A stretch of DNA of 62,004 nt, filler included, from Sphacelaria rigidula (taxonomy: Eukaryota), in the NCBI GenBank assembly GCA_964200075.2. It is 9 parts of 9 records of this genome, joined end to end, with 100 filler letters (N's around TTAATTAATTAA, not from the genome) between each part and the next. Parts side by side here need not be neighbours in the genome. Positions count along the whole stretch, not along the records: positions 41,406 to 48,205 come from CAXNAA020018018.1; 8 more parts are not named here. One strand, 5' to 3'. Shown piece after piece: positions 19,001 to 62,004 of this stretch. The notes under the pieces are model-generated. The model was given only the letters and a program-made list of their open reading frames with translations, was not told the origin of the DNA and did not search any database. Made by a program: the position numbers and the translations under genes. The stretch's first letter is position 1; every line of letters starts with the position of its first letter.

Positions 19001-19793
19001 CTTCAGCATTACGTCGACTCGCGCCAGACGAACGTTTCAGTGCTACGAGTATTTACGCGAAGTCCACAAGTTTCAGTCGACGATAGAAACTAGATACTTC
19101 TCCGTGAAAAAAAAAAGAAAAAGTCACGTCACATCTGCCGGATCAAACCCGGCTTTCCCCCCCAATTTGGTTCCAGTTGTAACCGTTCCACGAAAGCGGA
19201 CGTACATATTACACCACCTACCCCCTTTTGTCGACAGGGGGGCGGAGGGGGGGGGCGTGTACTCATGATCTTGCACGCCGTAGTCATATGACCGTTGAGC
19301 TCGCATCCCTACAAAGCAGGGACGGGGCACGCCGGGTTTTCGCCGGACCAGGCTCGCACTCAAACCACAACCAAGCAGGAAGCGCCGTGACGTGTTCGGC
19401 GAGTCGCATCAAGGGTGAGCTGCATCCTCCCAAGATTGTTCGGCTCGAAGCGTACTCATTATCTCTAAAATACGGACGACAGCCTCGGATGAGTTGCTTC
19501 GTCTTCTGGCGGTATCGCCACTTCCAGAGACAGCCATGGGTTACACCCTGCCTTCAGACGTGACTTTAGATCAACGTGTACTCGTTCTTTATCGAACGAC
19601 TTGATGCTGTTATTAGGAGGACGCCTAACAAGGTGTATCGTACATGCACGACAAATCACGCGACACCACCCGTCTCCACCAGTGCCTGTACGAGTGGGAC
19701 CGCATCCTATTATACTCTACTACAGGAACACAGCCCAAGAAACACACAGTACCTTATCCATGGGGACCATTGCCTCCGAGACGCACTTCTCAG
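16076..19793 (-). CDS. CNNM/DUF21-CBS domain metal (Mg2+) transporter-like protein, partial (exons 19753-19793 and 16076-16201)
   Basis: Spliced translation xEKCVSEAMVPMDK-VFCLSRDEKLGGATMADIMASGYSRVLVYEGSDTRNIRGYLQ matches the CNNM first CBS motif (M.P...VF.L......I..SGYSR.PVY....NI.G). Both exons have AG/GT ends and the junction is phase 0. Confidence 0.85.
16256..16402. repeat. Degenerate minisatellite, about 4 copies of a 35-40-bp unit (GAAAACGTA.TT.GGGG.TAC.GTAGGACACG)
   Basis: Direct observation, within the CNNM intron. Confidence 0.7.
17592..17932. mobile_element. Two ~120-bp palindromic MITEs (17592-17713, 17813-17932) with piggyBac-like AACCCTTTT...AAAAGGGT ends
   Basis: Each copy is self-complementary and the two are related. 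A TTAA-like flank is present at the right end of copy 1. Confidence 0.6.
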
Positions 19794-20703
19794 CTGTCAG
19801 GAGAACGCCGTTCACGATAGCAACTTCGTCCGGATGCTGCACGAACAAAAATGGAGGCCAAGGGAGGGGGGAGGGGGGGGGGAATGGCAGCGAGGGTTAT
19901 AACTTTGCAAGATGGACAACAGTTGAAAGGAGACGGGAGCAAAAACAGCATACCCTTGACAAAAGAATACACAGTCAACAAGTGTACTGCGTACAGTATC
20001 GACTATTGCGTCTATCGCGACAATAGGTTCCATACTGTACGCAGTATATTTTTTTACAATGGAACCTACTGTCTAGGGTGTGAAATACAGTCACTCCTGA
20101 GTGATGCCGCCATGACCCCCTCCAGAAAAGTGGGGGGTTTGAGGGGAGGGACAGAACCTACATGTAGATCAAAATGACCAAAAACGAGAACACCGAGCAG
20201 CTGGGAACAACTCCCAAGCTTGAGGCCGTTTTCGCCGGGGTTGCCCACACGCGGCGCTTGATACAGCATGATACCTAGCTATCATGCGCTGTATGATATA
20301 TTTCTTCGTGACAGTTTTGGGGCTGCTTGGGGGGGGAGGGGGGTGCCGCCGTATCCCTCTCTTCCACGACGCTATCCAGCTATGGATAACAGTGGAGAAA
20401 CAGGGGGGACAATCAGGGCTCTCTTCATTCTACACTGTCCTGAGGGAGGAGAGGGGAGTGGGGTGATCCGCCGTCTGTGGTAGGTGGGGCCCCTCGGATC
20501 GTAGCCCGTAGTACCGGTGCGTCTTGAAGGGATGACGATCTTCAGGGGGGGTGGGGTTCAAGCAGGAACAGTACTAGATCCGTCGGTGGTGGGCGGGGGG
20601 GGGNNNNNNNNNNNNNNNNNNNNNNNNNNNNNNNNNNNNNNNNNNNNTTAATTAATTAANNNNNNNNNNNNNNNNNNNNNNNNNNNNNNNNNNNNNNNNN
20701 NNN

Positions 20704-20777
20704 AAGGGATGCGTGGTCAATGGTCAAACGACTAAGGCAAGCAACAAATGAGTACGCCCCCCCACACACACACACAC
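20704..20777 (+). mobile_element. 3' end of a C-tailed retroposon (contig start)
   Basis: AAGGGATGCGTGGTCAATGGTCAAACGACTAAGGCAAGCAACAAATGAGTAC is identical to 61949-62000. It is followed by g, a C-run and (CA)n. Confidence 0.75.
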
Positions 20778-21799: not shown

Positions 21800-23350
21800 G
21801 TAATTTTGTCATGTATTGTCCTGGAGATAAGGGGGGGGGGGCGTGTTGAATCGTGAAAACTTTTAGAGGCCATCGCTCCCGCAGCGACGCCTTTTCTCTC
21901 CTGCCATTCACGTGCGTATAGCATGCTTTTCGAGTCTCGACTAAATTTGAAGTGTGTTTGGAGTCGAAGTTGAAAGGAGCGGTTTGAGACGTTTATGCAG
22001 GTACAGTAGTTTTGGTGGCTCCGATTCTCAAACGGTACCTCAAGGTGTCGCGGTAAAACAAAAAGGGGGCGCAATGTTGGGCCGTATACGACCCTCGATT
22101 GAATCAACTAAGGGTGGTTCTCTGGGGGGTGATACTCCCCGTGTGAGACGCCCCGTACCCCGGTACACTGCGGATCTGAAGTTACTGGTATGATGCCAAA
22201 CGTAGCAGAAACTCATGACCAATGTATGTAATTAAGGGATTAAAATACCGCGTGCGGATGAACTACCGCATGTCCTGCGGTACATTGCTCACTCCGCATC
22301 TGATCATACAAGGGGAGAGGCGGATCTTTCTGGGGGTCGTGTTGGAATCAGGGGGCGAGGAATAGACAACCTTCTGCTCTTGGTGGCAGTATGGTTGAGT
22401 TCTTGATCATGGTTGGATCTTTGTCTGTTCACGAATACGGAGTATTATGATGTATGCAAAGGAATCTAGTCGACGGCAGTATGTGATCGCTACTTTTTAT
22501 TTTGCAGTACTCGTGGAATACAACGGTGGTGAGGTATGTCCTCAATTTCTACAATGAAAAGAAACACACGGCGCTTTTTGTGCTCCCCTTCTTGGTTCCG
22601 GCGATGATAATTTTTCGGTCCTCACATCTATCGTGAGGGAAGAATTGCCCCTTTCTCTCCCGACAAAGAGAATATGCGATATGCACCACGTATTTGTAAA
22701 TATTTCGTAGCCTCGAACGGAAAAATCATCCTAGCTCCGCTAAGTTCTTCAGAAAAGCTACGAAATCAGCCACGCTATCAACATCAGTGCCCCGAGAATT
22801 CATCTTCGATCCGACATGTTCGTAGTGCTCGATTTTTGTTTCATGATATCATTACTCAAGAGCAGCGGATCATTGGACGCCTGTCTGTTAGCCGCGAAAT
22901 GCCTCAGATCGCCCCCAAGATCACCCGTTGTACAGAGGGGGCCAGAATTGTTTTGCCACAACGCCCGCCACAAGAAACGTCGAAGACTGTGCGTTTGCAC
23001 GGAACGAGGTATAAACGAACCCCTCATCCGCCTCTCTTTTCTTGCGACTAGTGGGGTTATTCCGATTGCTGTTCATGACCCATGTTTTGTAAAGACGGCG
23101 CGTCATGTACATGCATGTGCCGTTAGGCAGCGAAACAGCAGCGTTGTAGGCAACGGCGATGGCTCACTCAGTGTGGTGTCGCCACCGCACGGGCAGTCAG
23201 GTGGCTTTTTTGCTCGTCAAAAGTTCCAGTCTTGGTTGAGAAAGATAACGCACTTCTCAATCATCCCCATAAGGGGCACGGGTGGCCGCTAGTATAGCTA
23301 GGCACTCCTTCCTGGCAGTGCGTTCCGTCGTACATGGTGGGCAATGTGGC
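21800..23350 (-). mobile_element. Highly degenerate Ty3/Gypsy pol remnant (RT/RNase H)
   Basis: Scattered fragments in shifting frames resemble Gypsy RT (GSFIPRSV; DVDSVADFVAFLKNL...FFR..LR) and RNase H (VPFENRSHQ; EKHAI). Many stops; boundaries approximate. Confidence 0.45.
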
Positions 23351-27604: not shown

Positions 27605-27678
27605 TTTCTGTTTGTTGGGTTCTTGTGGTTGTTGTACTCATTTGTTGCTTGCCTTAGTTGTGTGACCATTGACCACGT
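27605..27678 (-). mobile_element. Diverged copy of the same retroposon 3' end, with (CAA)-like tail
   Basis: Reverse complement reads CGTGGTCAATGGTCACACAACTAAGGCAAGCAACAAATGAGTAC-AACAACCACAAGAAC..., preceded by a C-run. Confidence 0.7.
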
Positions 27679-29743
27679 AGGGAGGGGGGGAATGTGGAAG
27701 ACACATCTTTGCATTGACATATCAGAGACTGATGCCACACATGTATGAAGAACCAGAGCAAGCAGGTAAAAGGTAGGAACGGTTGGAAAGGACCGGATTA
27801 CCGAGTACCCGTAACGCCAACGATACTAGACCACGTGGGGTGATGCCAGGAAAGAGCTTGATATTAGGACGGATCAACATCCCCGAGGAACTGGTCGCCT
27901 CCCGGCGGTCACTTCTCATCTGTCCCAACTTCTTGCCTACATGTCACAAAAGGAAATCATCGCCAGCCTCGGAGTTCTCTCGGCATCACGACGACAGCCT
28001 CCCCTGTAGTCTGTCTACCGTAGCGATACGCCTTCCTCACACATGTTCTCGACTGAATTTGAGTGCGGTTTCGTAGAAAGTCTCGCAAGTATTATGAGAA
28101 TTTCTCGCAAAATATCGCGAGGTGAGTTTGGCACTGTCGTTCATTCATAAATACGATAAAGTATGTTTTTCGGAGGCTATCAAACGACTGATGTTGTAAC
28201 CGCCCGAAGAAGGATGTTGGTATCTCGGTCAGTTACAATAATATCTTCCCGGATATTTGTAGTATATCATTGTCGGATATTTTTCTTAAGAAGTTTCCAC
28301 GAAGTATCCCATGTTACGTAGCTGATTTACCATATTTGATAAGTGGAACATGCCGCGGAACCATCTTTGAGGTCGCGATGTTCTCTAATGAACAGATATT
28401 GTACGGGCCCAGCTGTGATCGACACCCCCTAGGCCCACTCCCGTTGTTCTCTACCTTCACGCCATCATTCCCGCGCCATGGACCCTAGATAATGAGAAAT
28501 GAGTTGCCGAGATCATCATCGATTACCGAAAAGCGGCTTGTCTCGCAGCGGCTCAATGTGTGGGCCACAGCAATTTTTGCTACTCATATACCCCTCGTTT
28601 CTCTCATCTGATCGGTGAAAGGTCGCCGCATATTAGTATATTTAAAGGCTCTGGTTGGTACAAAAATCTCGCCACTCATATTTCTTGCCCGCTACCTGTG
28701 GACCATGTGCCATCTTTTAGTACAATAAGTGCGACTTTTCAAATACCAGGATATAGGGTATTCCCTAACCGGCCTGCCATGAAATCTTTCATACGCCGGA
28801 CGAGCACGAGTATGACCCGTGGCACTCGCGCTCGCTGGGTCGCTCGTTGTCCGATTTTGGAGGTCCTCGAGCACTCGAGTCATTGCTCGTTGTGGAAAAG
28901 TCAATGGGGCGAGCCGTTCCTTGTGGTGAACGGCTTGAGTCGAGGAGTCAGCGATCCGACGAGAAAATGATCCCAACGGGCTCTTCGAGGATCTCGGACC
29001 TATAATCTTCAGGTTCATATGCATATCCTCAACCGCAATGTCAATACGGCGGCCTATTGACAGCTTGCCGCCCTTACGGCGGGGTGGAGGAGTACTTGGG
29101 CGCATAACCATGGTTTATGTGGCCTGTGGTCTAATTTTGGGGCGGTAAACACAACTTCTCATAAGAATTCTCGTAAAAAGTCTCGGAATAATTCTCATGA
29201 CAATTCTCAAAAATACGGGACAAAATGGGTATATTTGGACACTATTTTAATGTAGATGACGATCTCTTCTTCTTTTTCTTGCATCAGCTTCGTTTGCAAT
29301 TTATCTTTCTAACGAACCCAACTATAGGATGATCGTCAACGTTTGAACACCCAAACCATCAAATGCCCATAAGTTCCCACACTTACGGGACAGAGGAAGT
29401 ATCTGTCAGAAGTCATCAGCACTGCCGACAGTAGGCGGCGTAGGACTAGCGAATGCAGGGAGCCTGCGGTGGTGCGGAGTACTGTCTGTACAAGCAGAAA
29501 AGCCGCAGCCATCAACAGTACAGCGGAAAGGCTTCGGCTTTCTGCTTGTACAGTGCTCCGCACCACCGCAGGCTCCGCTCCGCAGATGTGATGAGAGACA
29601 CACTGACGAGCGTCAGGTAGCTAGCTGGTTATGCCTCATGAGCAAAGAATTGCAGATGACTTCTTCACACGTCGGGCGATCACGACTATGACTCGTGGCA
29701 CTCGCACTCGTTGAGCTGCTCGCTGATCGTTTTTGGAGGTCCT

Positions 29744-39116: not shown

Positions 39117-39364
39117 GACACTTTCTACGATAGCCCCCCCCCCAAAGTGCATGATTTTGGGAGGCAAAACCTTCACGTAAATCGAAATGGGAAAAGCAGA
39201 GCACAACGAGAAGCTGGGAATTTCCACGCTTGGGTTCGTTCTAGTCAATGTCGCCAATATGAGGTGCTCCATGCAGCCTAAACCCGAAGATCAGGCGCTG
39301 TATGGCCATTTTGTTCGTGACACTTTGAGCTGGTTTCGGGGGGGGGGCTATCGTAGAAAGTGCC
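39117..39364. mobile_element. 248-bp MITE, TIR G(A/G)CACTTTCTACGATAGCCCCCCCC, 4-bp TSD AGCC; related copies at about 40088-40368 and 20115-20345
   Basis: Inverted ends flanked by AGCC at 39113-39116 and 39365-39368. The homologous host repeat at about 48420-48546 lacks the insert. Confidence 0.8.
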
Positions 39365-42081
39365 AGCCCAAGAAAATAGTCAATTACGAAAAGATCACAA
39401 AATTCCAAAAAACGAGTTGTTAGACCGCCCACTACTAACAACAACGTTTTCGTGAGATCGAGAGTAGAGCGCTGATTGAGAGTGGCCTTGATAATTCGCT
39501 GTAACTTAGCCATTCTTTCATTCCGTGTGTGCTTTTCTTTAACTCCATCACTGGCGTGTGCTTACAGCTACATGTCGATATCTTACTCAGGGATATCAAG
39601 GGCCTCAGTGGCAAGCTAATACGGAAAGCATATTGGGCCTCGTGGAGGGGCTTTTCGGAACTGAAACGATTCATTCATCAATTGAGCACCGTTCACTTTC
39701 AATCGTATCCTCTACTCTCAATATCACGAAAACAGTGTTTACTTTACCACGACAACGATGGGCTCTCTCGAGCACACCCGCCCACGTTGTAAACGGGGGC
39801 ACCGAAGTATCGTTGGGCATCCATTCGTTACGCCATCGCGGTGAAGATAGCGCTGGTCATTCCACCAGGCAACTGACGCGTGCCCAGGAGCGTTATACGT
39901 CCCCTGGCGGAGCGCTAGTTGTTGGTCCCGAAGACCCGACAAAGCTAAGGCAGAACTGCAAAGCTCAGGACGACGAAGAAACCGGGGAGCTTGACCTGGA
40001 AACAAACGTCGGAGTGGGCTGCCGTCGCATCTTACAATACTCCACCAAAGGCCGCGTCGCTGCGGGCGGTCAAGAGCAGAATCGATCGACACTTTTCACG
40101 ATAATAGCCCCCCCCCCCAAAAGTGGCTGGTTTGGGCAGGCAACATACGCACGTGAATCTTGCGTGAATCGAAATGAAAAAAGCCGAGCACAACGGGCAG
40201 CTGAAAATTCCCACGCTTCGGTTCGTTCCCGCCAATGTCGCCCATATGAGGCGATTTATGCAGCCTAAAACCAAAGATCAGGCGCTGTATCATCATTTTC
40301 TTCGTAATAACAGTTTTGGGCTGTTTTTTTTGGGGGGGGGGGGGGCTATTATCATCGAAGAAAGGCTCAATGGGCCATTTTTTTTTCACGTCTTTCATCA
40401 CCCGGAATAGGGGCGGAATAGGGGCGAAGCACCGCCGTTTCGGGCCGACTGTTTCGGCCGTTGGTCCAGCATGCAGGGTAACGCGCGAAAAAACCAAAAA
40501 TGTTTCGACAAAAAAAACGTCCAAGATTTCATTAAAATAATCGAGTCATCCTACGATAGAAGGGGGGGGGGGGGGTATGTCGGACCACTTTTTGCACCAA
40601 ATTCCGAGTCAAATCGTCGTTGAAAGCAGCAACGGTTGTTCGAACGAGCTTGGTACAGATACGCAACGCTCATTCATATTGCTTGACACTCTTTTAAACC
40701 AAATACATGCATGCGCACCGCGAGTAGTGAGTGTGGCAGGTCGTCTGACACACGTATGAACCTCTTTTTTCGTGCAATCAAATGCCCCGCCCTCCCATCA
40801 AAAGGATGACGCAATCGTGTAAGGCATCGGACACGGTTGTGGGTCAGCGTGATCGTAAAATATTCTTCCCTATTATTGTGGCACAGAGGAGAACGTGTAC
40901 CTCGTGAACACGTAAGACTGCATGTGCACATAAAAAGCACGTGGTGTGTGGCAGAAACGGGTTGATGTCACATCTTTTTTGACGCTCATTCTCTTTCACG
41001 CGCCGCCTCGCTGCTCCGTTCATTTTTATTGTGTTCTTGTCTTCACATTGAAAAATCTTTCCGATCTCTGCTCAGTACCTTCTTCGAAGATCCGTATTGC
41101 TACCTTAGCTGGTATTTTTATTTTTTTTTTTGTCCCCAGAGGACAGGAAGGAACCTTTTATCCATACACTTCGCTATTTCTAGTTTCGTGCAAACAGCCA
41201 ATCATCTATGTTGAGGATGGTGCTTTTGATTGAAACAGCCAATCATCTATGTTGAGGATGGTGCTATTGATTGAGGATGAGAACCCGGAGGATTAAAATC
41301 TTCGTNNNNNNNNNNNNNNNNNNNNNNNNNNNNNNNNNNNNNNNNNNNNTTAATTAATTAANNNNNNNNNNNNNNNNNNNNNNNNNNNNNNNNNNNNNNN
41401 NNNNNGTCGACGAACCAGCTGACTTGGTGCCCCACACATTTCAGGCGCATCACCTAGCAGACCCGATTTGTGAGAAGGCCAATAACCTGCTTGCCTGGTT
41501 TGCCAACAACCGCGAGACTGTCACACTTGCGGGAGTGGTAAAATTTGTGCAATCTCAACCCCACCTCGACCACACCACCACGCAGATCCAACAAGAGTAT
41601 GTCGAGCCCCTCATGATCATGTTCCGTGACGTCGAGGAAATTCGCAAAACGATCTTTTCTCAACCACCCCAGAACAACTTGGACCACGCAAGCGGAGCAT
41701 GGGATTAGGACTTTAGGGCTGATGGGCAACGAATTGCACAGCACCCTCTGCGCGTTGACGCAGAATGGCAGACTGCGGGCAAAAAGACAGGTACAGTTAG
41801 CGGCGGTAGCGTTCAAACCAAACATACGCGGACCCGGAAACAATCCGCGCGCTTCAAATCCCACGCGTCGAGTACCGACGATAGTGACACAGACAGCCAC
41901 GGTTCATCCCGTTACAATGACCAGATCCGCTCTAACCGACCTTCTGCACACAGACTCTCCGACTTTCTACCTCCGTCTTCCACCATTGCCGAGCAACGTC
42001 ACTCCCTCTTGAAAGAGAGAGAGGAAGGTAAGCCAGCCAAAATCGAGAAGAAACAGGTTTTGGTGGAAGTAAAGAAGGAGA

Positions 42082-43713
42082 GTGATCTATCCAACACAGA
42101 GACACGTGCATAGACTCAATCTGCACCACCACACAACCCGCAGCGACGCCCCCAGCATCCGACGAGCTTATTTGGAACTCAACATCAAGAGTGTAGGTAA
42201 GGTCAAACCTCGGTTGCCTTTCATTGCAGGATCCAACGCAAGTCTCAACTGTAGTCAGTTGAGGTCATCGCTCAAGAATGTATTGAGCGATATTCTCGCC
42301 ATTTGCGACCCAAATTTCGTCAGTCTCGAAAGCAGCGAGTGGGTCTGTGTGTGGAGCCGCTCGTTGCATCGGGCACTAGAGCAGGCGATTGACCTCAACT
42401 CCTTGCAATCCTCCAAAATTACTGCAATGTGCGACGCTCACTTCAACCAAGTGTCGCGGGCCCTCAACAAGGGCGCCATTGGGAACGAGGCGTTCACACT
42501 TTTGTTACGGTTGCTTAGCTCGTCGCTTGACACCAGCTACGAAGGGGAATCTATTGAAATATTACTCACCTTCAAGGTTCCCGTGCACACTCCCTTCAAT
42601 CAATACTTGAAGGACTTTCGCACTCTAATTTCGGTCACCGTGGATGGCGGGCGTGATCTAGCCCCGACCAACGAGATGGTAATGTCTTTCTTTCGTTCCA
42701 GTATGGGGCGACAGTACCCCAGTCGAATGCCGAGTGTTTTTGTGGGTGATGCAGCTACGGTAGCAGTACCATTCGCAAATCTCGACGAAATGTGGAGTCG
42801 ACTCGATGGGTTGCGTACGAATCGGACACAGGCTGTCGAGTCGACAGGAGTAAGACAGGACGGCATCACTTCGGCAATTAGCCAACACGGTACGCAGGTA
42901 ATAAGTCGGGAACCTCTCGTCACTCCAGTTGCCCCTGCGTCACGAACGCAATCCAGCAGGAAATCGAGTCAGCCGGCGTGGATACCTGACTCAATGACTT
43001 CTGCAGGGGAAGTCATAATGACCGCTCGGGTTCAGGTACCAGATGCATTTGCTAGTCGATTTTCAAGCTGGTCCTTCGCCAACGAAATTTGGCCGGAGGT
43101 AATCAACGTGAGCACCTCCATGAACAACCACGACCCCCCCCTCTGGACCCGCGACGTTGAACCCAACATCCGTAACGAGCTTATCCGTGAGTGTAAGGAC
43201 AAATATCTCAATTGCGGAATATGGTTCGATGGACGAACGGAGTACTCCGCCGCCGGTAGAGTTCCCATCCACTCCATGCGCACCTGCGAGGCACCGTTTG
43301 TGAACGCATTTGGCGTCTTGAATAACATATTCCACGATCCACAATATTCATCGTGCTGGCCAATTTGGCAAGCTCGTATGCGTTCTTACCCCCGCCCTCA
43401 ATCCGGCGACACGCGTGGCAAAAACAACCGCCCTAGACGGGGTAATCGCTTCTACGGTAACGATTCCCGCTACCAAAACCCGCAGTACCAAACAACGCAC
43501 TACCAGACGCGGCCCGCTGACTCGGCGCCACGTCTAACACAGTCTGACCCGGCAAACTCTCAACCGCAGAACCAGGTACACTCACAAGACGGAAGACGAC
43601 CACTGATGATCGCACCTAGTCGTACAGTTCCCCCACGCCAGGAAGACGCCCAACAACCCACCCTTGATGCTCACCGCACAACCGCACGATTAGGAATCAA
43701 CGTTCGCCGGTAA
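42082..43713 (+). CDS. Gypsy gag-like ORF (543 aa)
   Basis: Long ORF directly upstream of protease/RT, with a degenerate CCHC-like motif and a low-complexity basic/Gln-rich tail. Confidence 0.6.
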   Translation: MIYPTQRHVHRLNLHHHTTRSDAPSIRRAYLELNIKSVGKVKPRLPFIAGSNASLNCSQLRSSLKNVLSDILAICDPNFVSLESSEWVCVWSRSLHRALEQAIDLNSLQSSKITAMCDAHFNQVSRALNKGAIGNEAFTLLLRLLSSSLDTSYEGESIEILLTFKVPVHTPFNQYLKDFRTLISVTVDGGRDLAPTNEMVMSFFRSSMGRQYPSRMPSVFVGDAATVAVPFANLDEMWSRLDGLRTNRTQAVESTGVRQDGITSAISQHGTQVISREPLVTPVAPASRTQSSRKSSQPAWIPDSMTSAGEVIMTARVQVPDAFASRFSSWSFANEIWPEVINVSTSMNNHDPPLWTRDVEPNIRNELIRECKDKYLNCGIWFDGRTEYSAAGRVPIHSMRTCEAPFVNAFGVLNNIFHDPQYSSCWPIWQARMRSYPRPQSGDTRGKNNRPRRGNRFYGNDSRYQNPQYQTTHYQTRPADSAPRLTQSDPANSQPQNQVHSQDGRRPLMIAPSRTVPPRQEDAQQPTLDAHRTTARLGINVRR

Positions 43714-46223
43714 CTCACCGCAAAAGTACCCAACAATTTTCTTTCGCTCGGCCAGGTCACCAACATCACACACGTAAATCAACGGCGGCCACCGCGGGTT
43801 CAACCATGTGGTGTGGATTTCCTGGATATGCTAACACTGCCTTGAAGGGTTCCACGACAGTCGAAGCCCGTGCACTGTTGCATGACTATCAACGGAGCAG
43901 TGACAAAACCCAATGTTTTAACCCTAGACTTGATCACCCAGTTTTACATTCATCAGGTACTAATCATATTCAATCGAATCCCCTCCCTTCGAAGGAGAGG
44001 AAGTCATTTAGTGCAGTTTCTCCCGCATCAGGAGCCGAATTATCTTCTGATACGATAGACACTGCTGCTCCGACCGTTCATCGGGGAACACAAAACTCAA
44101 AGCCACACACTCCAGCACCTCCCAACTGCTCAAGTGCCCGGCTAACCACCCTACCGAGTTCCGCAAAAACTACGGCACCCGGTTCCCTTTTATTTGATGA
44201 GCGTAATTATTTCTTGAAGGGTCGCAACCGCAAAGAACCCATGCTTTCCGTCGCTCAGCAGGTTGGAATGGAACCCCAAGTGACTCAGGTGATGCGCCAA
44301 GGGCGTGACCTAGGTTCGACTGTCCGAGAACTCATTTCAATAGCTCCTGGAGACGCCGACCCTTTCGTGCGCTACACGCGTCATCCTTGGAGGGCTTCTC
44401 CAGATGATCATGTACATAACCCTGATGTAGTAAGCGCACGTGAACTCCAAGGAAGAGATTGCGTGTGGGTTTAGACAGATGAAAACCTTAGAGTGGAACA
44501 GGCCGGTACTCCCCCGATTTCAAACAAATCGTTACTGCTCCCTGAACACCCCGCGTGCACTACGTTAGAACCCATTTCCGATGAAGCGTCGCCGTCTGTA
44601 GGGACAGAGACTTCGCCGACTCATGGACGTTCGCATCCTAGTCATGAAGGCACCTCAATCGTGTGTTCGTCACCAGGCAAACAAAGTGTTGCGCAAGACA
44701 ACTCGTCTCCTAATTCGCCCAGGTTAGCCCCTTTAATAGACGCGGGGTTGAACAGCACAGCTTTATTAACCCCGCGTCCTGACGAATTGTCTCAACCTCC
44801 CATGTTGGCCCTAACTAGTGATGGTATTGAGTTGATTGGCGTATCAAACTCAACACCGCGCCTCGAAGAATCGTCCCCTGTTCCGACCAAGCTGGATAAT
44901 GTAATTGATCCCGCTTTGCACAATGACGATTCGCCCCCTCTGTTGGCCAATAAGGGTGAAACACCACGCACAGATCACTTGTCGGGTCCAACTACGACAA
45001 CTGCCCTTTCCCGGCATCGCCCCTCCGTTGCAGTATATGAGATTCAATCCTCGACTGATGAGACAAATATTCCAGGCACAAACACTGACACTCCCTGCAC
45101 GCACCATCCTTCCGACCAAAAGCCTGTTCCACAGGATCATCAGCGGGTGTATTTTAGCACCTTCGTTCAAAACGCAAAGCAGGATGTGTCAGATGTCTTC
45201 CCCGAATTCGGGCCCGATCTCGTCAGTGGTATTGCAACTGTGGATGATGCTTCTTTTACGACCAAGATAGGATTACATAGTGGAGCGCGTGCACACTGTC
45301 ATTTGATAGCTCTTGCACTACCAGACTCTGGTTCACCTCAAACGTTCATCACCGCCAGCTGCTGGCAACAGATGATCGACGCGGGCGCGGCGGACAAGAA
45401 TTGTCTGTCCACCGTGCACCCTCGCGTTGTTGGTGGGTTTGGTTCCTCCACATCTCTTACGGTCAATCAATCGGTGAGACTAAGTGTACAATTCTACCAG
45501 GATACTACTCCCGCTGCTCGGTTGTCCGTATGGGCACTAACAGTGCCCAACGGTTCCATGTCTTTTGATGTTTTGTTAGATCGAGATAGTTGGCTTCGTT
45601 TTTCCACACAAACATATACGACGGACACACCTGTCCCGAACCGTCCAGTCACAAGCAAACTGTCTCTGGGTCACTTCGACACTGATTCGGGAGCTCATAC
45701 TTACGAGGATGACCCCACGAAAACAGGTAATGCTTCCCATCTGTACTATATTGGTGAACCGGTCATTTCTCTTTCTCGTGAACCCCAACTAATACAAGTA
45801 AACCTCGTGAGACGCAATGGATCGCTTGCCCTCACAGGACATTATTTGGTCGAGTTGCTCAAACCTGATCAAGCACAGGTTGGTCCGTTTGAACAGACCG
45901 AAGTCTTTGTCCACGAAGGCAGGCAGGCCATTTACCTCACGTCCCCTGCATGTTTCGATATACTCAACGGTCAGTTGTTGGGTTATGCTCAAGCGCCTCT
46001 CATACAAACCGCCCTGTCAGATGTGTGCCCCCCGGCGAACAACAACTCGCCGACCGACCCCCCATAATCCACGGGCCTCCCTCCGCTACACACGCCTGAC
46101 ACCATGGTGGTGACAAACCCACCAGATGCGCCTGACCCTCAACCCCCAACTGCATTACTGGATAGATTTTCTGCAGAACAACGCGCCAGTTTCCAAACGT
46201 TGTAGGATGGCATTCTCCCTCAC

Positions 46224-47705
46224 TTGCGGCATGTTGTTTTTGATATATCTGGCGATGGTTGGACATCCACTGTAATCGGTAGATTGAGATCCATCTTGAT
46301 CAGATACTCTGAGCGATTTTCTACTGCACCCTTGGATTTAGGTCGATGTACCACGACACCGTTTAAGATCAAGATTCCTGATGGCACTCCGCCTATCGCT
46401 ATGCGTCCGTACCGTACGAACCCCCTCATAGCGGATAAGATCCAGGTAATTCTCGATGGTTACTCTTATCTGCCGGTTTCATTCGGCACTCGACGTCTCC
46501 GTGGGCCTCGCCTTTAGTAGTCGTCCGTAAGAAGAATGGCAAAATCAGACTGACGGTCAATTATCGACGATTGAACGCTGTCACCAAAATCGCCCGGCTG
46601 CCAAATTCACGGATTGATGAAGTTACAAACTCTCTTGACGGGGGTATAGTATTTTCGAACTTTGACATGCAGTCCGACTACCACCAACTCGTGATGGATC
46701 CAAATTTCATTGAGCGGACAGCGTCTTGCACGCCATCAGGTTTGTACGAGTGGTTGGTTACACCACAAGGTGACGCCGGAGCTCCAGGTGCGTAAGAAGC
46801 ATGTGATGTTTCGTGTAACTGATGGATTGCCCAAATGCCATATGTACCTTGATGATGCCGTGTGCCACGACTCCACACCGGCTGAACAATTCGAACAGTT
46901 GACCTCATTCTTCAATCGGTTTGAACAACACAACTTGAAACTCGCACCCTCCAAATCCCGCATTGGCGCCACAAAGATTGAGTTCTTGGGTCATTGCATC
47001 ACCCCCAAAGGTCGTAGGCAAGCAACAAATGAGTACGCCCCCCCCCCCAAAGGTCGTAGCTCAAACCTCGACAAGGTCGCCGCACTCTCCGATATGCCCA
47101 TGCAACGGGACATTTCTCAACTGCGTTCCTTGTTGGGAGGTCTAAGCTACTACAGACCGTACTTGCCAAACCTTGCCCGAAAGCTTAAACCCCTCACCAC
47201 CCTCCTCAAAAAAGGGGTGAAATTTGTGTTCACATTGGAAATGGAAAAAACAGTCCGCTGCCTCCTTGACGCTCTTTCGCGCCCGCCGATTCTCGTCTTC
47301 CCCGACTGGTCGGCCGCGGAGCAGGGTTTCCGCCCTTTCCGGCTCCACACAGATTCTTCCAAAGTTGGGTTTGGCTGCACATTAGAACAGGAGCAAGTCG
47401 ATGCTACTGTTCGTCTCATTGTCTATCTGAGTCGCACCACTTTTCCGAATGAACAGAATTGGCCTGTCATGGAACAAGAGGCCGGCGCAGTTGTTTGGGG
47501 CGTGCGACGTCTGCGTCAGTATTTGTATGACATCCCGTTTTCGATTTATACCGACCACAAGTCTTTGGAAAGCCTTGCCAAAATGGCGGAACACGACGCT
47601 AGGATCCAACGCTGGTTCGAAATCCTGTCGTCTTACAACTTTCAACTGAAGTACCGCACAGGTCCCCAGAACGCAAACGCCGACTTCCTGTCACGCTTGC
47701 CCACA
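46224..47705 (+). pseudogene. Gypsy reverse transcriptase-RNase H, broken by frameshifts/stops
   Basis: Motifs are split among ORFs 46224-46517, 46571-46795 and 46710-48257. Confidence 0.92.
47018..47043 (+). mobile_element. 26-nt 5'-truncated retroposon insertion with 16-bp TSD
   Basis: CCCCCAAAGGTCGTAG (47002-47017) - GCAAGCAACAAATGAGTACGCCCCCC - CCCCCAAAGGTCGTAG (47044-47059). The insert equals the 3' end of the repeat at 20704, 27605 and 61949. Confidence 0.88.
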
Positions 47706-50599
47706 CCAGCTCAACCTATCGACGACTCCGCCATGGGACGTATCACCGATCCCACCGAAGATATTGTATATTTCATAAGCAGGAATGGACGTAGAGGTCT
47801 CTACACACCACTTTCACTGAGAGAAACGCCGGCTTTAGGTATGGGTGGGCTGACGACCACAGCCCACGCATCAGTTCTAGGCAGCTTGCAACCTCAATCG
47901 TTGTACTCAGTTTGGAATGGACTGTCTACGAATACTGTTGGCTACGATGATTTTCGTGCAACTGGCCGACGCATGGTTTTCGCAGCAGGTGTAGAACCGT
48001 CCTTTGCTGACTCCGCCTTACCAGTTCAAGTTCGAGATTTGATTTCGAGTAGAACTCGTGGACGGCGGACCGCCGAAACGGCCACCAAATTAGCCGGATC
48101 CGGTCCTGACCTTCCCCCCCCTGCCCCCACCCCGGTCCCCGATAGTTTCCTTGCGCCCCCGCAGCCTCCGCGACGCAAGGCCCCCAGGAAATCGACCCCG
48201 ACCGTNNNNNNNNNNNNNNNNNNNNNNNNNNNNNNNNNNNNNNNNNNNNTTAATTAATTAANNNNNNNNNNNNNNNNNNNNNNNNNNNNNNNNNNNNNNN
48301 NNNNNAAATCAAATCGGACACAGTTAAGGGCTCGTATAAACATGACGGACTTTACTTATGGGACAGAGGAAGTATATTATTATTCATCCTTGAACAATCT
48401 TTAGTCAATTAATGTATTCTATTGAGTACAGAATTTTTTTTCCTTTGAATGTGGAGCGGTACAAGTACCTTGACATCCCCAATGTGATGAGCGGTGGCAA
48501 GCGAAAGAGCCTAAGAAAATTGCCAATTACGCAGAAATTACAAAATGGAAAGTTCAGGCGGCTACTGATCTGCATCTGTTGGCGACAACGGGTGGTGCTA
48601 TACAGTACAATTGGTGTGTTCCGACAGATAGTCCGAAAATATGAATAGAAGTAACTTGGGCAGGTAAACCTTGTTGAAATTATATCGGACGCTCAATTCT
48701 ACCGTTTTGGAGGGGTAGGTTACCTCAGGTTTCGGCCGGGGAGTCTTTTTTTTTTAAAGGCGACACATGGAAGTGTTGCGCCTGGTTTAGTGCCTCGTTT
48801 TCACCACCCCTTCAAGGAAAAATACACGGTGCGGTCAGCAGACGCAACAAAGCATTCAAGGATGATCATATTGGCCTTCAACCGTAGCCGATGCTTATGA
48901 TTACCTCCTTCAAACACTCGGGATCAAATCTCCACAAGCTGAGGATCGACCCCAACAACTGGCAAACAGATAATTCCGTCGTACAAGTGCGATGGCCATT
49001 TCCCCTTCTGGAAGCCAAACACGATCGCAAGAACTCCTGTTGTATTGAGTAGCATACTTCACCTCGCACAAAAGTAGGGCATACTAGCAGGTACTGTTCA
49101 ATGTTAAGCTGTGCTCGTAGCCTCATAAAATGAAATGAGTGTGCTAACCGATGTGTTATCTTCACCCTGGCTTACTCATTGACGGCAACAGTGTATCACG
49201 CTGAAACCCCATACACTGGTGCGTATGTGTCGTGTACATTGCGAGTTGAGTTGTCTCATCGGGTACTGTGTGAGTAGAGATGTAATGAAATCTGTTCCGG
49301 GTGGGTGTTCAAGCATACAAAATGCGGCTGAAAAGTTCGCTGAAAGCAACATTACGACAGGGATTTCGCCGACATGGCCCTCGCTGGCGATTCCAAGCTC
49401 TCTGGGCCTTGTACCACGCTTCCGATCCACGTTTTTGCTGTATGTTTCACTTGAGGCAGATTTCACGTCGATTGTGTGCTTATTTGAAATTTACGTTGTG
49501 TGACCCGCCTTCTTTCGTGCCTGAAAGTCAACACAACACTGTACAGTCAGCGTTCTATGCGGACTGTTTCTTGAAGCTGAGTCAAGTAGGCTTCGACGTC
49601 TCAGTATCTTGGAAGTTGTCCAACTTTTGCTGCGGTGTTACATTTGTGGCATGGATATATCCCCGTCAAACGTTGTCCATTTCAATTCTTGTGGATTGGA
49701 CATAGCGTGCATATTTTTCTTGTTTCTGGAGGTTGGATAGCGGAGAAGATTTCTGCTTTTGATGTCGTTGCAGCAGTATTCATAACGTGGCTGCCTAGGC
49801 ACAGTTCATGGGCTGTACTGAAGTCGAGTCATGAGGGATTTTGAGCCATTTTTTAAAAACAAAACCGAACTTCAGCCAAGGGTTTAGTTGACGAGGCTCG
49901 TGTATACCCGCCATGTCTCTTGCGATAGAACGATCACGTTTTTGCGAGTATATGCGTTACCTCTATTAGATAGGAAGCGGTGTAGCACAAGAGCAGCAGT
50001 CGCAATCCCTCGCAATACCACGAAGGTGGTCCATGCGAGAGGGTTGATAAAACACCTAAGCAGCGACAAACTCCGCTCTCCCTCGTCCCACCCCACCTCA
50101 TTTTTCTTCAAAGCCTTGATTACACGTTGCCCTGATATATGTCGTACATTTCAATCGCTCTTACAAGCGGTTATACTCGCTGCTGTAGTTGCTGTCAACA
50201 TATGGCCGTCAAGTATGCAGCGTACAGCCCGAAACCCGCGATTTCCGTCATCATCTACGAAATACAGAGGCGTTCGGAAGTACGTCAAAAAAACAATACA
50301 TGGCCGGCGCAACACTGCAGGGTCTGACCCCCGTAAATGATATGATGCAAAAAAATTGAAGACATCGTGTCGTCACGCGCGGGTGCTTCAAAGTTTATGG
50401 ATTCCTCCAAAATCTTGAATCAAGCTGTCGTCGTCAATCTTGTGAACTATTTCTTACCCTTCGCGTCACTTTGGACCAAAAAGAGCAGTCCAAAGGGAGT
50501 TGAGTCGGTTGGTGCGTTGAGGCCGATGGTCGAGCTTCGGCGTTCAAAAATAGTCTTTGGCAGGGCCCGCGGCGGTCGGCTTTCTCCTAGTTTTTGCTG

Positions 50600-55610: not shown

Positions 55611-55887
55611 CCTCCTCGTGAGAGAGGGATTGTTGGACTCCCAGGAAAGAGTTTTCCGAGAAGGTCATGTGCGTGTAGAAAACGTCAAAATGCATTGTGT
55701 ACTGGAATTTCTTCGAACCGTATTCTGATCTCTTGTGAAAGAATAGAAAACTGGGCGGCAACTTGTATCCTGAGATTTGCTACCAATTTAGAAGTGGTCA
55801 GATGAACAACAGCTTCACAGAGGAACAAAACGAGGCTACTGAGCAACACTGAACGCGACGATTGTATGGACGCCCCCCTCCCCTCCA

Positions 55888-55995
55888 CGTTGACTGCGAG
55901 CCTTGTCCGACGAAAACCCAGCGTGATGTGTCCCTGCTTTGTAGGGATACGAGGTCAATGGCCTCATGACCACGGCATGAAATATCCCGAGTACA
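55888..55995 (-). repeat. Dispersed repeat shared with about 19258-19363
   Basis: Shared core ATCCCTACAAAGCAGGGAC....CACGC.GGGTTTTCG.CGGAC.AGGCTCGCA. Confidence 0.75.
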
Positions 55996-56616
55996 TCACC
56001 CGGTGCATACCCGACGCTTTATTGGTGATAGCATACTGGAACAGCTGTACGCACCCCGTCGATTGCCGTCAAACAAAGTCACTTGCTACTCGTGTCCTCC
56101 CCTCTTCAACCGCGGATTTATTTTTCAGAAACTTGTGCGCTGCCCCCCTTTTCGCCCAGCAGCTTCCAAACGTCTTGGCGGCAGAAGGCTTTGATGCACC
56201 TTGATGACATCACAGAACGATCGGTCGTGTGTGTTGGGGGGGGGGGGGTTCATACGTGGAACGAAATGCGGATCTTCCTTTTTTATTCGGTGACTTCTGG
56301 CGATCCGATCGACTTCTCCAGTACGCGTTTTTTGTTTTCTAGTTCATACGAAGTATATTTTTGCGTGAACAGAGGCAGGAAGGTGAGTGACACAGGCTGC
56401 ATGCATTCACACGCAGCTGTTCATTTTCTTTTTTTTTGTAACTTGCCGATCGTGGTGAAGCTTGTTCATCTCGAAGTGTTTGATGTTTTTTACATTTTCT
56501 TCCTTGATTGTCGATCATTTGTTTTTGTTCGACTTCGTTGTTGTCTCCCCATTTATGTAATTTGCCCCGCTCCCCTCCTCCTCCCCATTTTTTCTTTTTC
56601 TCGTTATATTTCCCAG

Positions 56617-59795: not shown

Positions 59796-61921
59796 TGCTT
59801 CTACACTCAAACTCTAGTGATATGAACACCGGCGTGCCCACCCGCGACAAGCATACTCCATCTTCGAGTCCACAAATAGCCTGTATTGCGATATTACTTG
59901 TGTCTCTGCGGGAAAAGTGCATTTTTCGTTTTATCGTGTGGCAATTTTGGCGTCGACAGTTCATGTCTGATCGATGCGGATAAGACGGTAACCCAAAGTA
60001 CAAGAGAGCTTTCACCACGCCCGAACGTGAGAAATCGGAAAAGTAGTTGTTTTTCCCTCTGTGTGGGAAATGCATTCGGTTTTCTTGTGCGTGTACTACT
60101 AGTAGTATATTTGCATGGTCCATCATTAAGGGGTGACTCAACTAGTAAATGTGTCATCTTTGTTGGTGTCAGCGTATTGGAAGTTGTCGCGGAGGTTACG
60201 AAGCGAAACGTGGGTAAAATTCCCCGCAAAATGTTGTCGGCGTAACTTGACTTGCCGTGGCCTCTTCTGATGAGGTGATTGACCTGAACCAACCGCAGTG
60301 TTTGGTCTGTTCTAAGACCATTTCTGTACGCCCTGAGCAGACTGTACAGACACGGTAGATACTGTCTGTACTATCTGGACGTCTCACAATGCGCAGCACA
60401 ATCACTGCGTGTTTATCTCTGCACTATTGAAGTCTCTGGTGAGTGTAGCAGGGGTTCGGTGGTCTGACACCTTGCAGCTCAAGCGGATGTTTCATAACTT
60501 GTACGTTGACCGTTGAGTATTTCTTTTTTGTGCCTAGGCTTTTGCCGCCAACAGACTGGTACCACTTGCCCTGCGTAATTATACATGTCTCTTCGCTTCT
60601 GTTGTAGAAACAAGGTATAATGTCAGACAAGACTTGTTATGCCAGCGCCCGACTGGCATGGGCTACAGAGGAAATGGCGAATGTTTCACACAAGGGACAA
60701 GTCATGAGCCACCTAAAATAACTACACGAAGAGACACCCGAAGACCCCCTTGTCCATGAACAGAAAATGCGTGACAGGAGGGTTCGAGAAGCCGAAGCAG
60801 TCGCTACTTTTGCGCCACTCCGCGTGCTTCGCGGCCATCGCTGTGTGGGAGCAAATTTGGGAAAAGGGGACATATGAGCTAGCTCATGGTCCAGATCATT
60901 GCACCCTCGAATAGCAAGAAGTGATGTTGAGGTAGCTAATGAGCTGTCCGAGGTGTGAAGTATTTCATGTATTGGGACAACGCCCTCGCTCGTGGTAAAG
61001 TCGTACCTCGCGTGTGCTAACTCTCCGGGCGTTCCAGTAATAGCCGTAACGTGCGAAATAAACCCCCCCCTGCCATGCGAAGCTGACATTTGAATATAGC
61101 TTGATTGTGTTTGATTAGGGTAAATAGGAAGGGGCTGTCGGGCTATCGAAAGTGGGACGAACATGTACAAGCTACAAGCGCGACAGCCCCGTCATTGTTC
61201 TTGTTGTCGGCGTTCCAGTCACAAACGTCTGGCCGCTTCCGTGGCGCACAGATCTCTCAACAAATTATATTTTTCGTCACTTTTATTCAGTCCACAAGGT
61301 TCGTCTGACCGACTTCTTTTACGGAAAATAATACGCCGGGTTAAAATATCACATGTCTGTATGAGACAAAAAAATCGACGATTGGAGACAGTTATCGGTC
61401 ATGAATGTTTGTCTGAGTAAGGAACCCAGACAAGGACCGTTTCGATATGAAACGCCGGATATCACGTACCTATAGTTCAGCTCTTTGTCTTGTTTCATCT
61501 ACCTACCACACCTCAATTTAACAGGGTTCAAACTCCATGACTGACCCTCATCCGATAGCGGCCTGCTCACCGCTGAAGGGCTGCCGCGGCCAGCAACATG
61601 GAAATCATGGTGTTCCCAGCCAGCCAATCGCTGCGCGTGCACAATTACAAAGGTGCTCTCTCTAAAGACACCGACGACTGTATATGTAGGAGTTGCGTGC
61701 TATCGAGAGGTACGGCCAAATAATACTACTGTGCCGTTCTAGAAGTTGAAGAGAGTCCAGTACGTGAAATAGTTCTACAGGCTGGGCCGCCCAAGATGCG
61801 AACAGGAATGTTGACACGCGAGTCTTGAGCTCAATTTTGAGTCGTTTTTGATGAAATTTTGACGATATATACAGGACGTACGTGGGAAGACTCTCTATCC
61901 CCCCCCCCCTCCCCCCCCCCT

Positions 61922-62004
61922 CCTTTCGAGACGTTGCTCCGTCTCGAAAGGGATGCGTGGTCAATGGTCAAACGACTAAGGCAAGCAACAAATGAGTACC
62001 CCCC
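61922..62004 (+). mobile_element. 3' end of the C-tailed retroposon, preceded by a 12-bp-stem hairpin and a poly-C tract
   Basis: CCTTTCGAGACG-TTGCTC-CGTCTCGAAAGG then GATGCGTGGTCAATGG...ATGAGTACCCCCC at the contig end. Confidence 0.75.

Follow-up and report, generated by a model that had tools for sequence, protein, structure and literature searches.

What inserted 42 nt into the pol region of a Gypsy retrotransposon copy in a 62,004-base stretch of Sphacelaria rigidula DNA (hereafter the window)? The added nucleotides are bounded by a repeated 16-mer and end in a run of C. In our judgement they are, with high probability, a dead-on-arrival and extremely 5′-truncated insertion of a long interspersed nuclear element (LINE), made by target-primed reverse transcription (TPRT) from a LINE RNA with ...AAATGAGTAC(G) and then oligo(C) at its end. 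The window consists of nine contigs of ~6,800 bases, joined through spacers of the form N...TTAATTAATTAA...N, and the insertion lies in the seventh piece (41406-48205). Logan contigs from four runs (X1, X2, X4 and X6; their kinds were guessed as ‘?’, ‘DNA?’ or ‘RNA?’) were placed at a likeness of at least 85% on this seventh piece alone; the LINE copies at 20704, 27634 and 61924 lie outside it.

A short insertion with a duplicated target and an empty site

The order of sequence at the site is ...CATCA CCCCCAAAGGTCGTAG GCAAGCAACAAATGAGTACG CCCCCC CCCCCAAAGGTCGTAG CTCAAA... (Table 1). The original prediction had described a 16-bp duplication around 26 nt that match a repeat on three other contigs, with a C tail merging into a C5 run of the target and an AG microhomology at the 5′ junction, and all of these features are borne out. 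The 16-mer CCCCCAAAGGTCGTAG occurs exactly twice in the window, at 47002 and 47044, and still only twice when one mismatch is allowed, with none expected from 100 shuffles. From within the insert, GCAACAAATGAGTAC has four matches in the window (20741+, 27634-, 47022+ and 61985+) where 0.2 are expected; the three other copies sit on separate ~6.8-kb contigs, each ~60 nt or less from a contig end. The six added C run into the C5 of the 3′ copy of the target-site duplication (TSD), giving an 11-C run at 47038-47048, and because the TSD opens with the tail’s own nucleotide, the border between the two is ambiguous. The microhomology is real, since self-BLAST of the pieces finds 47016-47044 identical to 20735-20763 at 29 of 29 positions, including the AG shared with the target. 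Beyond these 2 nt, a longer similarity between target and LINE at the 5′ junction was not significant (8/16 matches, P = 0.11 excluding the microhomology).

The original prediction had looked to sister Gypsy copies for an empty site, and three of the four runs supply one. A joint from 47001 to 47044, which skips 42 letters and leaves 14-16 letters fitting both sides, was found in a single contig of each of the runs X2, X4 and X6, and X1 has none. The X6 contig (record 29, 512 nt) follows the window over 46766-47001 and then 47044-47320 with no extra letters; it has 28 other differences, which identify it as a diverged sister Gypsy copy with one 16-mer and exactly C5. An Ectocarpus gene model, P0006, whose Gypsy pol is 49% identical over 330 aa, aligns in BLASTP with gaps of 9 + 5 = 14 residues exactly at RQATNEYAPPPKGR. 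The site thus carries both marks of a LINE insertion: a TSD, and an empty site elsewhere, in the runs and as a gap in the Ectocarpus homologue.

Very short inserts can also be left by the repair of double-strand breaks, for example as a polymerase-theta-type templated copy of abundant LINE cDNA or DNA. The 26-nt length would suit such a filler, as would the 2-nt microhomology and the homopolymer overlap at the junctions, which are typical of end-joining as well. We nevertheless consider repair very improbable. A clean 16-bp duplication would need a staggered break of LINE-insertion size, endonuclease-independent LINE insertions usually lack TSDs, and the insert consists of exactly the LINE 3′ terminus and tail, with the tail adjoining the C-run that starts the TSD, which is the geometry of TPRT.

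The stop-to-stop frame across the site reads ...FLGHCITPKGR-RQATNEYAPPPKGR-SSNLDK..., and the 42 nt keep that frame, as the original prediction had pointed out; the significance that this might lend the insertion is lost, however, on a Gypsy copy that was already frameshifted. Its pol is spread over three frames (46206-46517, 46439-46795 and 46695-48257), in which Pfam recognizes RVT_1 and RT_RNaseH around the site, RVT_1 stopping at FLGH immediately upstream of the insertion. Sister contigs lack 2 nt at 46463 (17, 28, 22 and 1 contigs in X1, X2, X4 and X6, respectively) and 1 nt at 46799 (6, 4, 3 and 1). These two indels break pol, so the host copy was already defective, and frame preservation – a one-in-three chance – is a coincidence; the insertion at the Gypsy site has no functional consequence. 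For the Gypsy open reading frames (ORFs) further upstream, 44475-46067 and 42073-43713, Pfam gave no family.

The source LINE and its oligo(C) tail

The sequence that matches the insert was called a repeat in the original prediction. It is one, but it is also more than that: to judge from the reading frames that end in it, the insert corresponds to the 3′ coding end of a LINE with a single predicted ORF for endonuclease, reverse transcriptase and a CCHC motif (EN-RT-CCHC) and with practically no 3′ untranslated region (UTR). A 19-mer of the terminus found five loci (L001-L005) in a scan of metagenome contigs. Two of these (L004, L005) were discarded as chance matches with nothing in common beyond the pattern. 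The other three share more than 600 nt upstream of the terminus, an open frame whose 204-aa ORF tail includes a CCHC motif (CPCGKAIESRIHIVVEC...). The ORF ends in ...VVNGQMTKASNK*, its TGA lying inside AAATGAGTAC, 5 nt short of the end of the element. Full-length forms were recovered by protein search as P0002 (1360 aa) and P0005 (1328 aa), the former with the domains Exo_endo_phos (170-392, E 3e-12) and RVT_1 (740-989, E 1e-30); the C-terminal 204 aa alone gave no Pfam family.

A scan of species-genome contigs added two copies. One (L007) holds a full ORF of the 1359-1360-aa type, 88% identical to P0002, and the other (L006) is a LINE copy truncated to ~340 nt. Both of these eukaryotic-LINE contigs, of 5259 nt (L007) and 7119 nt (L006), are filed in bacterial metagenome-assembled genomes (MAGs), one of them labelled Sulfitobacter sp. 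and one ‘uncultured bacterium’, where they are evidently binning contaminants. Viral contigs gave 0 matches to the LINE terminus.

The terminus ...GAGTAC is common to copies of 20, ~46, 65, ~340 and ~4100+ nt, whose 5′ truncation is thus variable. At its truncation point, the copy starting at 61935 has a 10-nt snap-back inverted duplication, 61924-61933 (TTTCGAGACG) against 61940-61949 (CGTCTCGAAA). The terminus is widespread in the run contigs, where the bin with the insert has 3 to 20 times the depth of neighbouring bins, and the LINE is abundant in the source organism.

Sphacelaria rigidula and Ectocarpus sp. supply the named protein relatives, the closest among them being those of Ectocarpus, with 49-59% identity in the EN-RT region and 62% in the final 204 aa; by these relatives the LINE is of a brown-algal type. 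Hits of the protein searches were otherwise unnamed or bore generic names, and none gave a clade name for the LINE. From the features it shares with the RTE-X group annotated in Ectocarpus, and from these relatives at 49-62% identity, we place it most probably in that group. Two Ectocarpus sp. gene models are of note in themselves: in P0006, the C-terminus of the C-tailed LINE family is fused to a Gypsy pol (with PF08719), and P0047, named ‘ABC’, contains an RVT_1 domain.

The window holds a second LINE, at 6902-8240, which the original prediction had put forward as the autonomous partner of the insert. This candidate we set aside, as its fragment at 6908-8062(-), which spans the end of EN to the start of RT and is cut off by the contig start, shows no more than 22-24% protein identity to P0002 and P0005 (tblastn) and belongs to a different LINE.

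The tail was examined in nine copies, four in the window (20757, 27634(-), 47038 and 62000) and five outside it (L001, L002, L003, L006 and L007). In eight of the nine, a C-run follows the terminus ...GAGTAC(G), and the flanking sequences are unrelated (Table 1). The run contigs repeat this pattern on a larger scale. Leftward of 47016, 136, 485, 361 and 44 contigs (X1, X2, X4 and X6) have loose ends whose consensus is LINE sequence, AGGGATGCGTGGTCAATGGTCAAACGACTA; past 47048, 374, 746, 685 and 60 contigs continue, with a consensus of 10-20 C first and divergence after that (agreement 0.39-0.45). C-runs behind the same terminus in so many unrelated flanks mean that oligo(C) is a general property of the LINE family and not a slippage peculiar to the Gypsy site.

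Could the element be read on the other strand instead? On the minus strand, several short repeats of the window start with a G-run and (C)GT(GT)ACTCAT (19247, 20757 and 47038), or with a G-run and CGTACTCAT, and hairpin-like sequence follows downstream, as if the 20 nt were the 5′ end of a capped small RNA (spliced-leader- or snRNA-like, GTACTCATTTG...) with extra G’s derived from the cap. The plus strand, however, codes for a 1360-aa EN-RT ORF whose end lies 5 nt short of the terminus, and no Rfam family reached its gathering threshold in the window, the region 61700-62004 giving two lncRNA matches at chance level (E 0.75 and 8.3). Moreover, G-runs of at least 10 far exceed cap-derived additions, and the hairpin at 61924-61949 is a snap-back peculiar to its own copy and missing from the others. 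We therefore reject a spliced-leader or small-RNA origin, whose probability we put at practically nil, on the grounds of the coding plus strand and the empty Rfam search.

The LINE appears to have company. Three copies of a ~115-nt SINE-like (short interspersed nuclear element-like) sequence in the window share their 5′ part with each other, and only their last ~55 nt with the LINE (AGGGATRCG...TCAA.GG...GAC...GAGTAC). Two have a C-run at their end (C9; C7TC6TC5...), and C-rich sequence lies ahead of two. From this arrangement they are probably non-autonomous partners of the C-tailed LINE, comparable to RTEX-N2 of Ectocarpus. A hairpin predicted in the 3′ module has a weak consensus (RNAalifold, -4.0 kcal/mol, 10 sequences).

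In the 61 kb, homopolymers of at least 9 are nearly as numerous for G/C (19 runs) as for A/T (20 runs), and G/C runs stand at the start or end of several window contigs, suggesting that assembly breaks at the tails. C-tailed elements are a source of long G/C homopolymers, at which short-read assemblies break, and contigs with C-tailed LINEs are mis-binned into bacterial MAGs, as L006 and L007 were.

Apparent insertion into C-runs and a proposed route of integration

The 5′ junction is readable in three of the window copies, and in each a C-run lies no more than 16 nt upstream: C5 starting the TSD at the Gypsy site, C7TC3 directly before the copy at 27634(-), and C11TC10TCC before that at 61935. 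One of the three has a clean TSD, which starts with C5; the other two are truncated copies that abut C-runs and whose 3′ flanks run off the contigs. In addition, joints that go back 33 letters occur in 2, 19 and 7 contigs of X1, X2 and X4 (0 in X6). Here a second short copy stands directly behind the C-run, for example ...C-run GTCTACAATAGTCGCACGACCA AGGCAAGC... Such tandem short copies fit insertion into C-runs, the tails of earlier copies included.

Microsatellite-specific LINEs insert specifically into repeat tracts, which raises the question of whether the C-run belongs to the target only, the LINE having entered existing (C)n tracts and the six extra C having arisen by replication or reverse transcriptase slippage on C5. 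The 5′ junctions and tandem copies just described would agree with this, as would the number of long G/C runs in the window and the ‘C-rich’ TSDs and ‘(C)n termini’ listed in an Ectocarpus table (PMC12477816, in its accessible part). We find it unlikely all the same. The empty site has C5, but the filled site has C5 at the 5′ copy of the TSD and C11 at the 3′ junction, so that the added C’s adjoin only the 3′ end of the element, as a tail would. Furthermore, tails of 7-13 C, together with a C-dominated continuation in 60 to 746 contigs per run, stand in unrelated flanks. Nor does a target preference speak against a tail, for the two are compatible, and L1 combines them.

A 5′-truncated, oligo(C)-tailed insertion made by TPRT at a C/G homopolymer, as the original prediction had it, thus agrees with the empty site, with the terminus of an EN-RT LINE and with C-runs in eight of nine copies. 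Read from the anatomy of the insertion, its course would be as follows. An APE-type endonuclease would nick the bottom strand at what becomes the left border of the TSD, exposing a 3′-OH on ...TTTGGGGG-3′; because the TSD starts with the tail nucleotide, the nick would leave an end that is able to pair with an oligo(C) RNA end. The G’s at the nick would then pair with the C-run that ends the LINE RNA and prime reverse transcription, as the C/G counterpart of the T-primer and poly(A) of L1. After six C and 20 nt of unique sequence, the cDNA would leave its template and join the top strand, cut 16 bp downstream, through the 2-nt AG/CT microhomology, and fill-in would produce the 16-bp TSD.

Where the oligo(C) comes from is a separate matter. 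A tentative proposal, which we think possible but doubtful, is a C/G-specific TPRT in which the endonuclease nicks after G-runs and the reverse transcriptase starts only on an oligo(C) end made by slippage, non-templated C addition or a non-canonical tailing enzyme, and not by read-through of a donor tail. If true, such a system would be the first dissected among LINEs whose homopolymer tail is not poly(A), and the unusually heavy load of long G/C runs in genomes of this kind would be accounted for.

Several points weigh against the account given here. The position of the nick is drawn from a single TSD, this being the one insertion with a readable duplication, and inspection by eye of the flanks shown for L006 and L007 revealed no TSD. 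One of the nine copies has no C tail. The DNA alone would fit an RNA-borne C-run (read-through of the donor tail), slippage of the reverse transcriptase on the G primer, or non-templated addition. The assignment to RTE-X draws on features and relatives rather than on a phylogeny, and the kinds of all four runs are guesses. Finally, no contig spans the filled site among the 32 of about 53,000 run pieces listed, which are short and break at the LINE repeat, and so the filled state depends on the window assembly.

This last point, along with the shortness of the window contigs (~6.8 kb), several of which end in G/C runs or in the LINE repeat, would suit a chimeric path through the repeat graph. 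Such a mis-assembly is unlikely, because Gypsy and LINE share only 2 nt at the left junction, too few for a k-mer mis-join; nor would a mis-join duplicate 16 bp of unique Gypsy sequence exactly and in direct orientation, and we allow an artefact hardly any probability. An insertion by TPRT remains our preferred explanation.

Some other G/C-run sequences of the window lie apart from the LINE copies. Paired C10...G10 and C11...G14 runs stand ~200 nt apart at 39119-39362 and 40095-40360 (see also 40562-40575 and 20329-20336). They are flanked by inverted copies of CACTTTCTACGATAG, and the ~260-nt unit is repeated ~1 kb away at 83% identity; the unit may be a repeat of fold-back-like type, or else a pair of convergent C-tailed ends. 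G11-G13 runs at 21831-21841, 17413-17425 and 56236-56248 adjoin unrelated sequence (on the minus strand, for example, ...CAACACG-C11) and may be tails of other C-tailed families.

Table 1. Features of the insertion site, LINE copies with the sequence that follows their terminus, and SINE-like elements. Positions are those of the window; L-numbered copies lie on other contigs.
Feature	Position	Strand	Remarks
TSD, 5′ copy, CCCCCAAAGGTCGTAG	47002..47017	+	final AG also matches LINE (microhomology)
Final 20 nt of LINE, GCAAGCAACAAATGAGTACG	47018..47037	+	holds last codons and TGA stop of LINE, out of frame with Gypsy pol
Six C added by insertion, read as oligo(C) tail	47038..47043	+	empty-site contigs have C5 only
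TSD, 3′ copy, CCCCCAAAGGTCGTAG	47044..47059	+	joint from 47001 to 47044 skips 42, up to 16 letters fit both sides
Decayed Gypsy pol (RVT_1, RT_RNaseH) in three frames, host of insertion	45969..47792	+	insertion just past RVT_1 (FLGH motif)
LINE 3′ end at contig start, 53 nt	20704..20763	+	then G, C7, (AC)7
5′-truncated LINE copy, ~46 nt	27634..27679	-	C7TC3 before; CAA-like stretch after, no C tail
5′-truncated LINE copy, 65 nt (61935-61999)	61924..62004	+	C11TC10TCC before; at least C5 after, to contig end
Tail of copy 20757	20757		terminus then C7
Tail of copy 27634(-)	27634	-	terminus then AACAACCACAAG..., no C-run
Tail of copy 47038	47038		terminus then C6, plus target C5
Tail of copy 62000	62000		terminus then at least C5, contig end
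Tail of copy L001			terminus then C8
Tail of copy L002			terminus then C10
Tail of copy L003			terminus then C2TC7TC2TC3
Tail of copy L006			terminus then C9TC9
Tail of copy L007			terminus then C13
SINE-like element, ~115 nt	19256-19370	-	
SINE-like element, ~115 nt	55882-55995	+	
SINE-like element, ~115 nt	17287-17400	-	

Relation to known LINE systems

The original prediction did not recognize a C-tailed system of this kind as described, and here it has to be corrected: the Ectocarpus transposable element library of 2025 already lists RTE-X elements with ‘(C)n 3′’ and ‘C-rich’ TSDs (PMC12477816, MOESM3). In the accessible part of its table, RTEX-1_Ec32 is entered as ‘single EN-RT ORF; (C)n 3′’, and RTEX-2_Ec32 as ‘(C)n termini/TSD’; the TSD column has the entry ‘C-rich’. 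The non-autonomous RTEX-N1/N2_Ec32 share the 3′ 60-100 bp and ‘can be present in tandem’, and the table also holds RTE families with (CAA)n tails and CRE families with (CA)n tails (PMC12477816, MOESM3). RTE-X is the most abundant LINE group of Ectocarpus, with 16,418 copies (PMC12477816). The C-rich ends are recorded in the supplementary table; the accessible main text of PMC12477816 does not use ‘C-rich’. An RTEX-1 element is also included in the Saccharina genome paper, as far as its accessible text goes.

The LINE described here resembles these Ectocarpus elements in its single EN-RT ORF, its C-runs (8/9 copies), its tandem short copies and its short partners with a common 3′ module. It differs in species and family, with no more than 59-62% protein identity, a comparison made with the table’s descriptions and not with the RTEX consensus sequences. 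The Ectocarpus paper, in its accessible part, gives no empty-site proof, tail-length data or mechanism (PMC12477816). Full-text literature searches found no paper on poly(C) tails of non-LTR retrotransposons or on poly(C) target-primed reverse transcription. The oligo(C)-tailed kind of LINE, then, is already catalogued in a brown alga, where its mechanism was not analysed, and what we describe is not a new kind of element.

Among better-known LINEs, the I factor and UnaL2 have microsatellite tails. With LINEs so tailed, including the Ectocarpus RTE (‘(CAA)n 3′’) and CRE (‘(CA)n 3′’) families, the C-tailed LINE has in common a short-repeat tail of varying length, adjoining a conserved 3′ module found in the non-autonomous partners as well; by analogy, this combination suggests that the reverse transcriptase recognizes the 3′ end and slips at initiation. 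The difference is that the repeat unit of the C-tailed LINE is a single nucleotide.

In L1-type TPRT, the poly(A) tail pairs with a T-rich primer at the nick. The insertion at the Gypsy site shares with it a TSD that starts with the tail homopolymer and is ~15 bp long, 5′ truncation, and microhomology at the 5′ junction. In contrast to L1, the ORF of the C-tailed LINE reaches to within 5 nt of the end, leaving hardly any 3′ UTR, and the homopolymer is C instead of A, and hence does not originate by ordinary polyadenylation. Together, the insertion and its empty site offer a clean natural snapshot of one LINE integration, in which six C’s arrive with the element and priming appears to take place at a G-run – direct sequence-level support for a C/G analogue of the A/T priming of L1.

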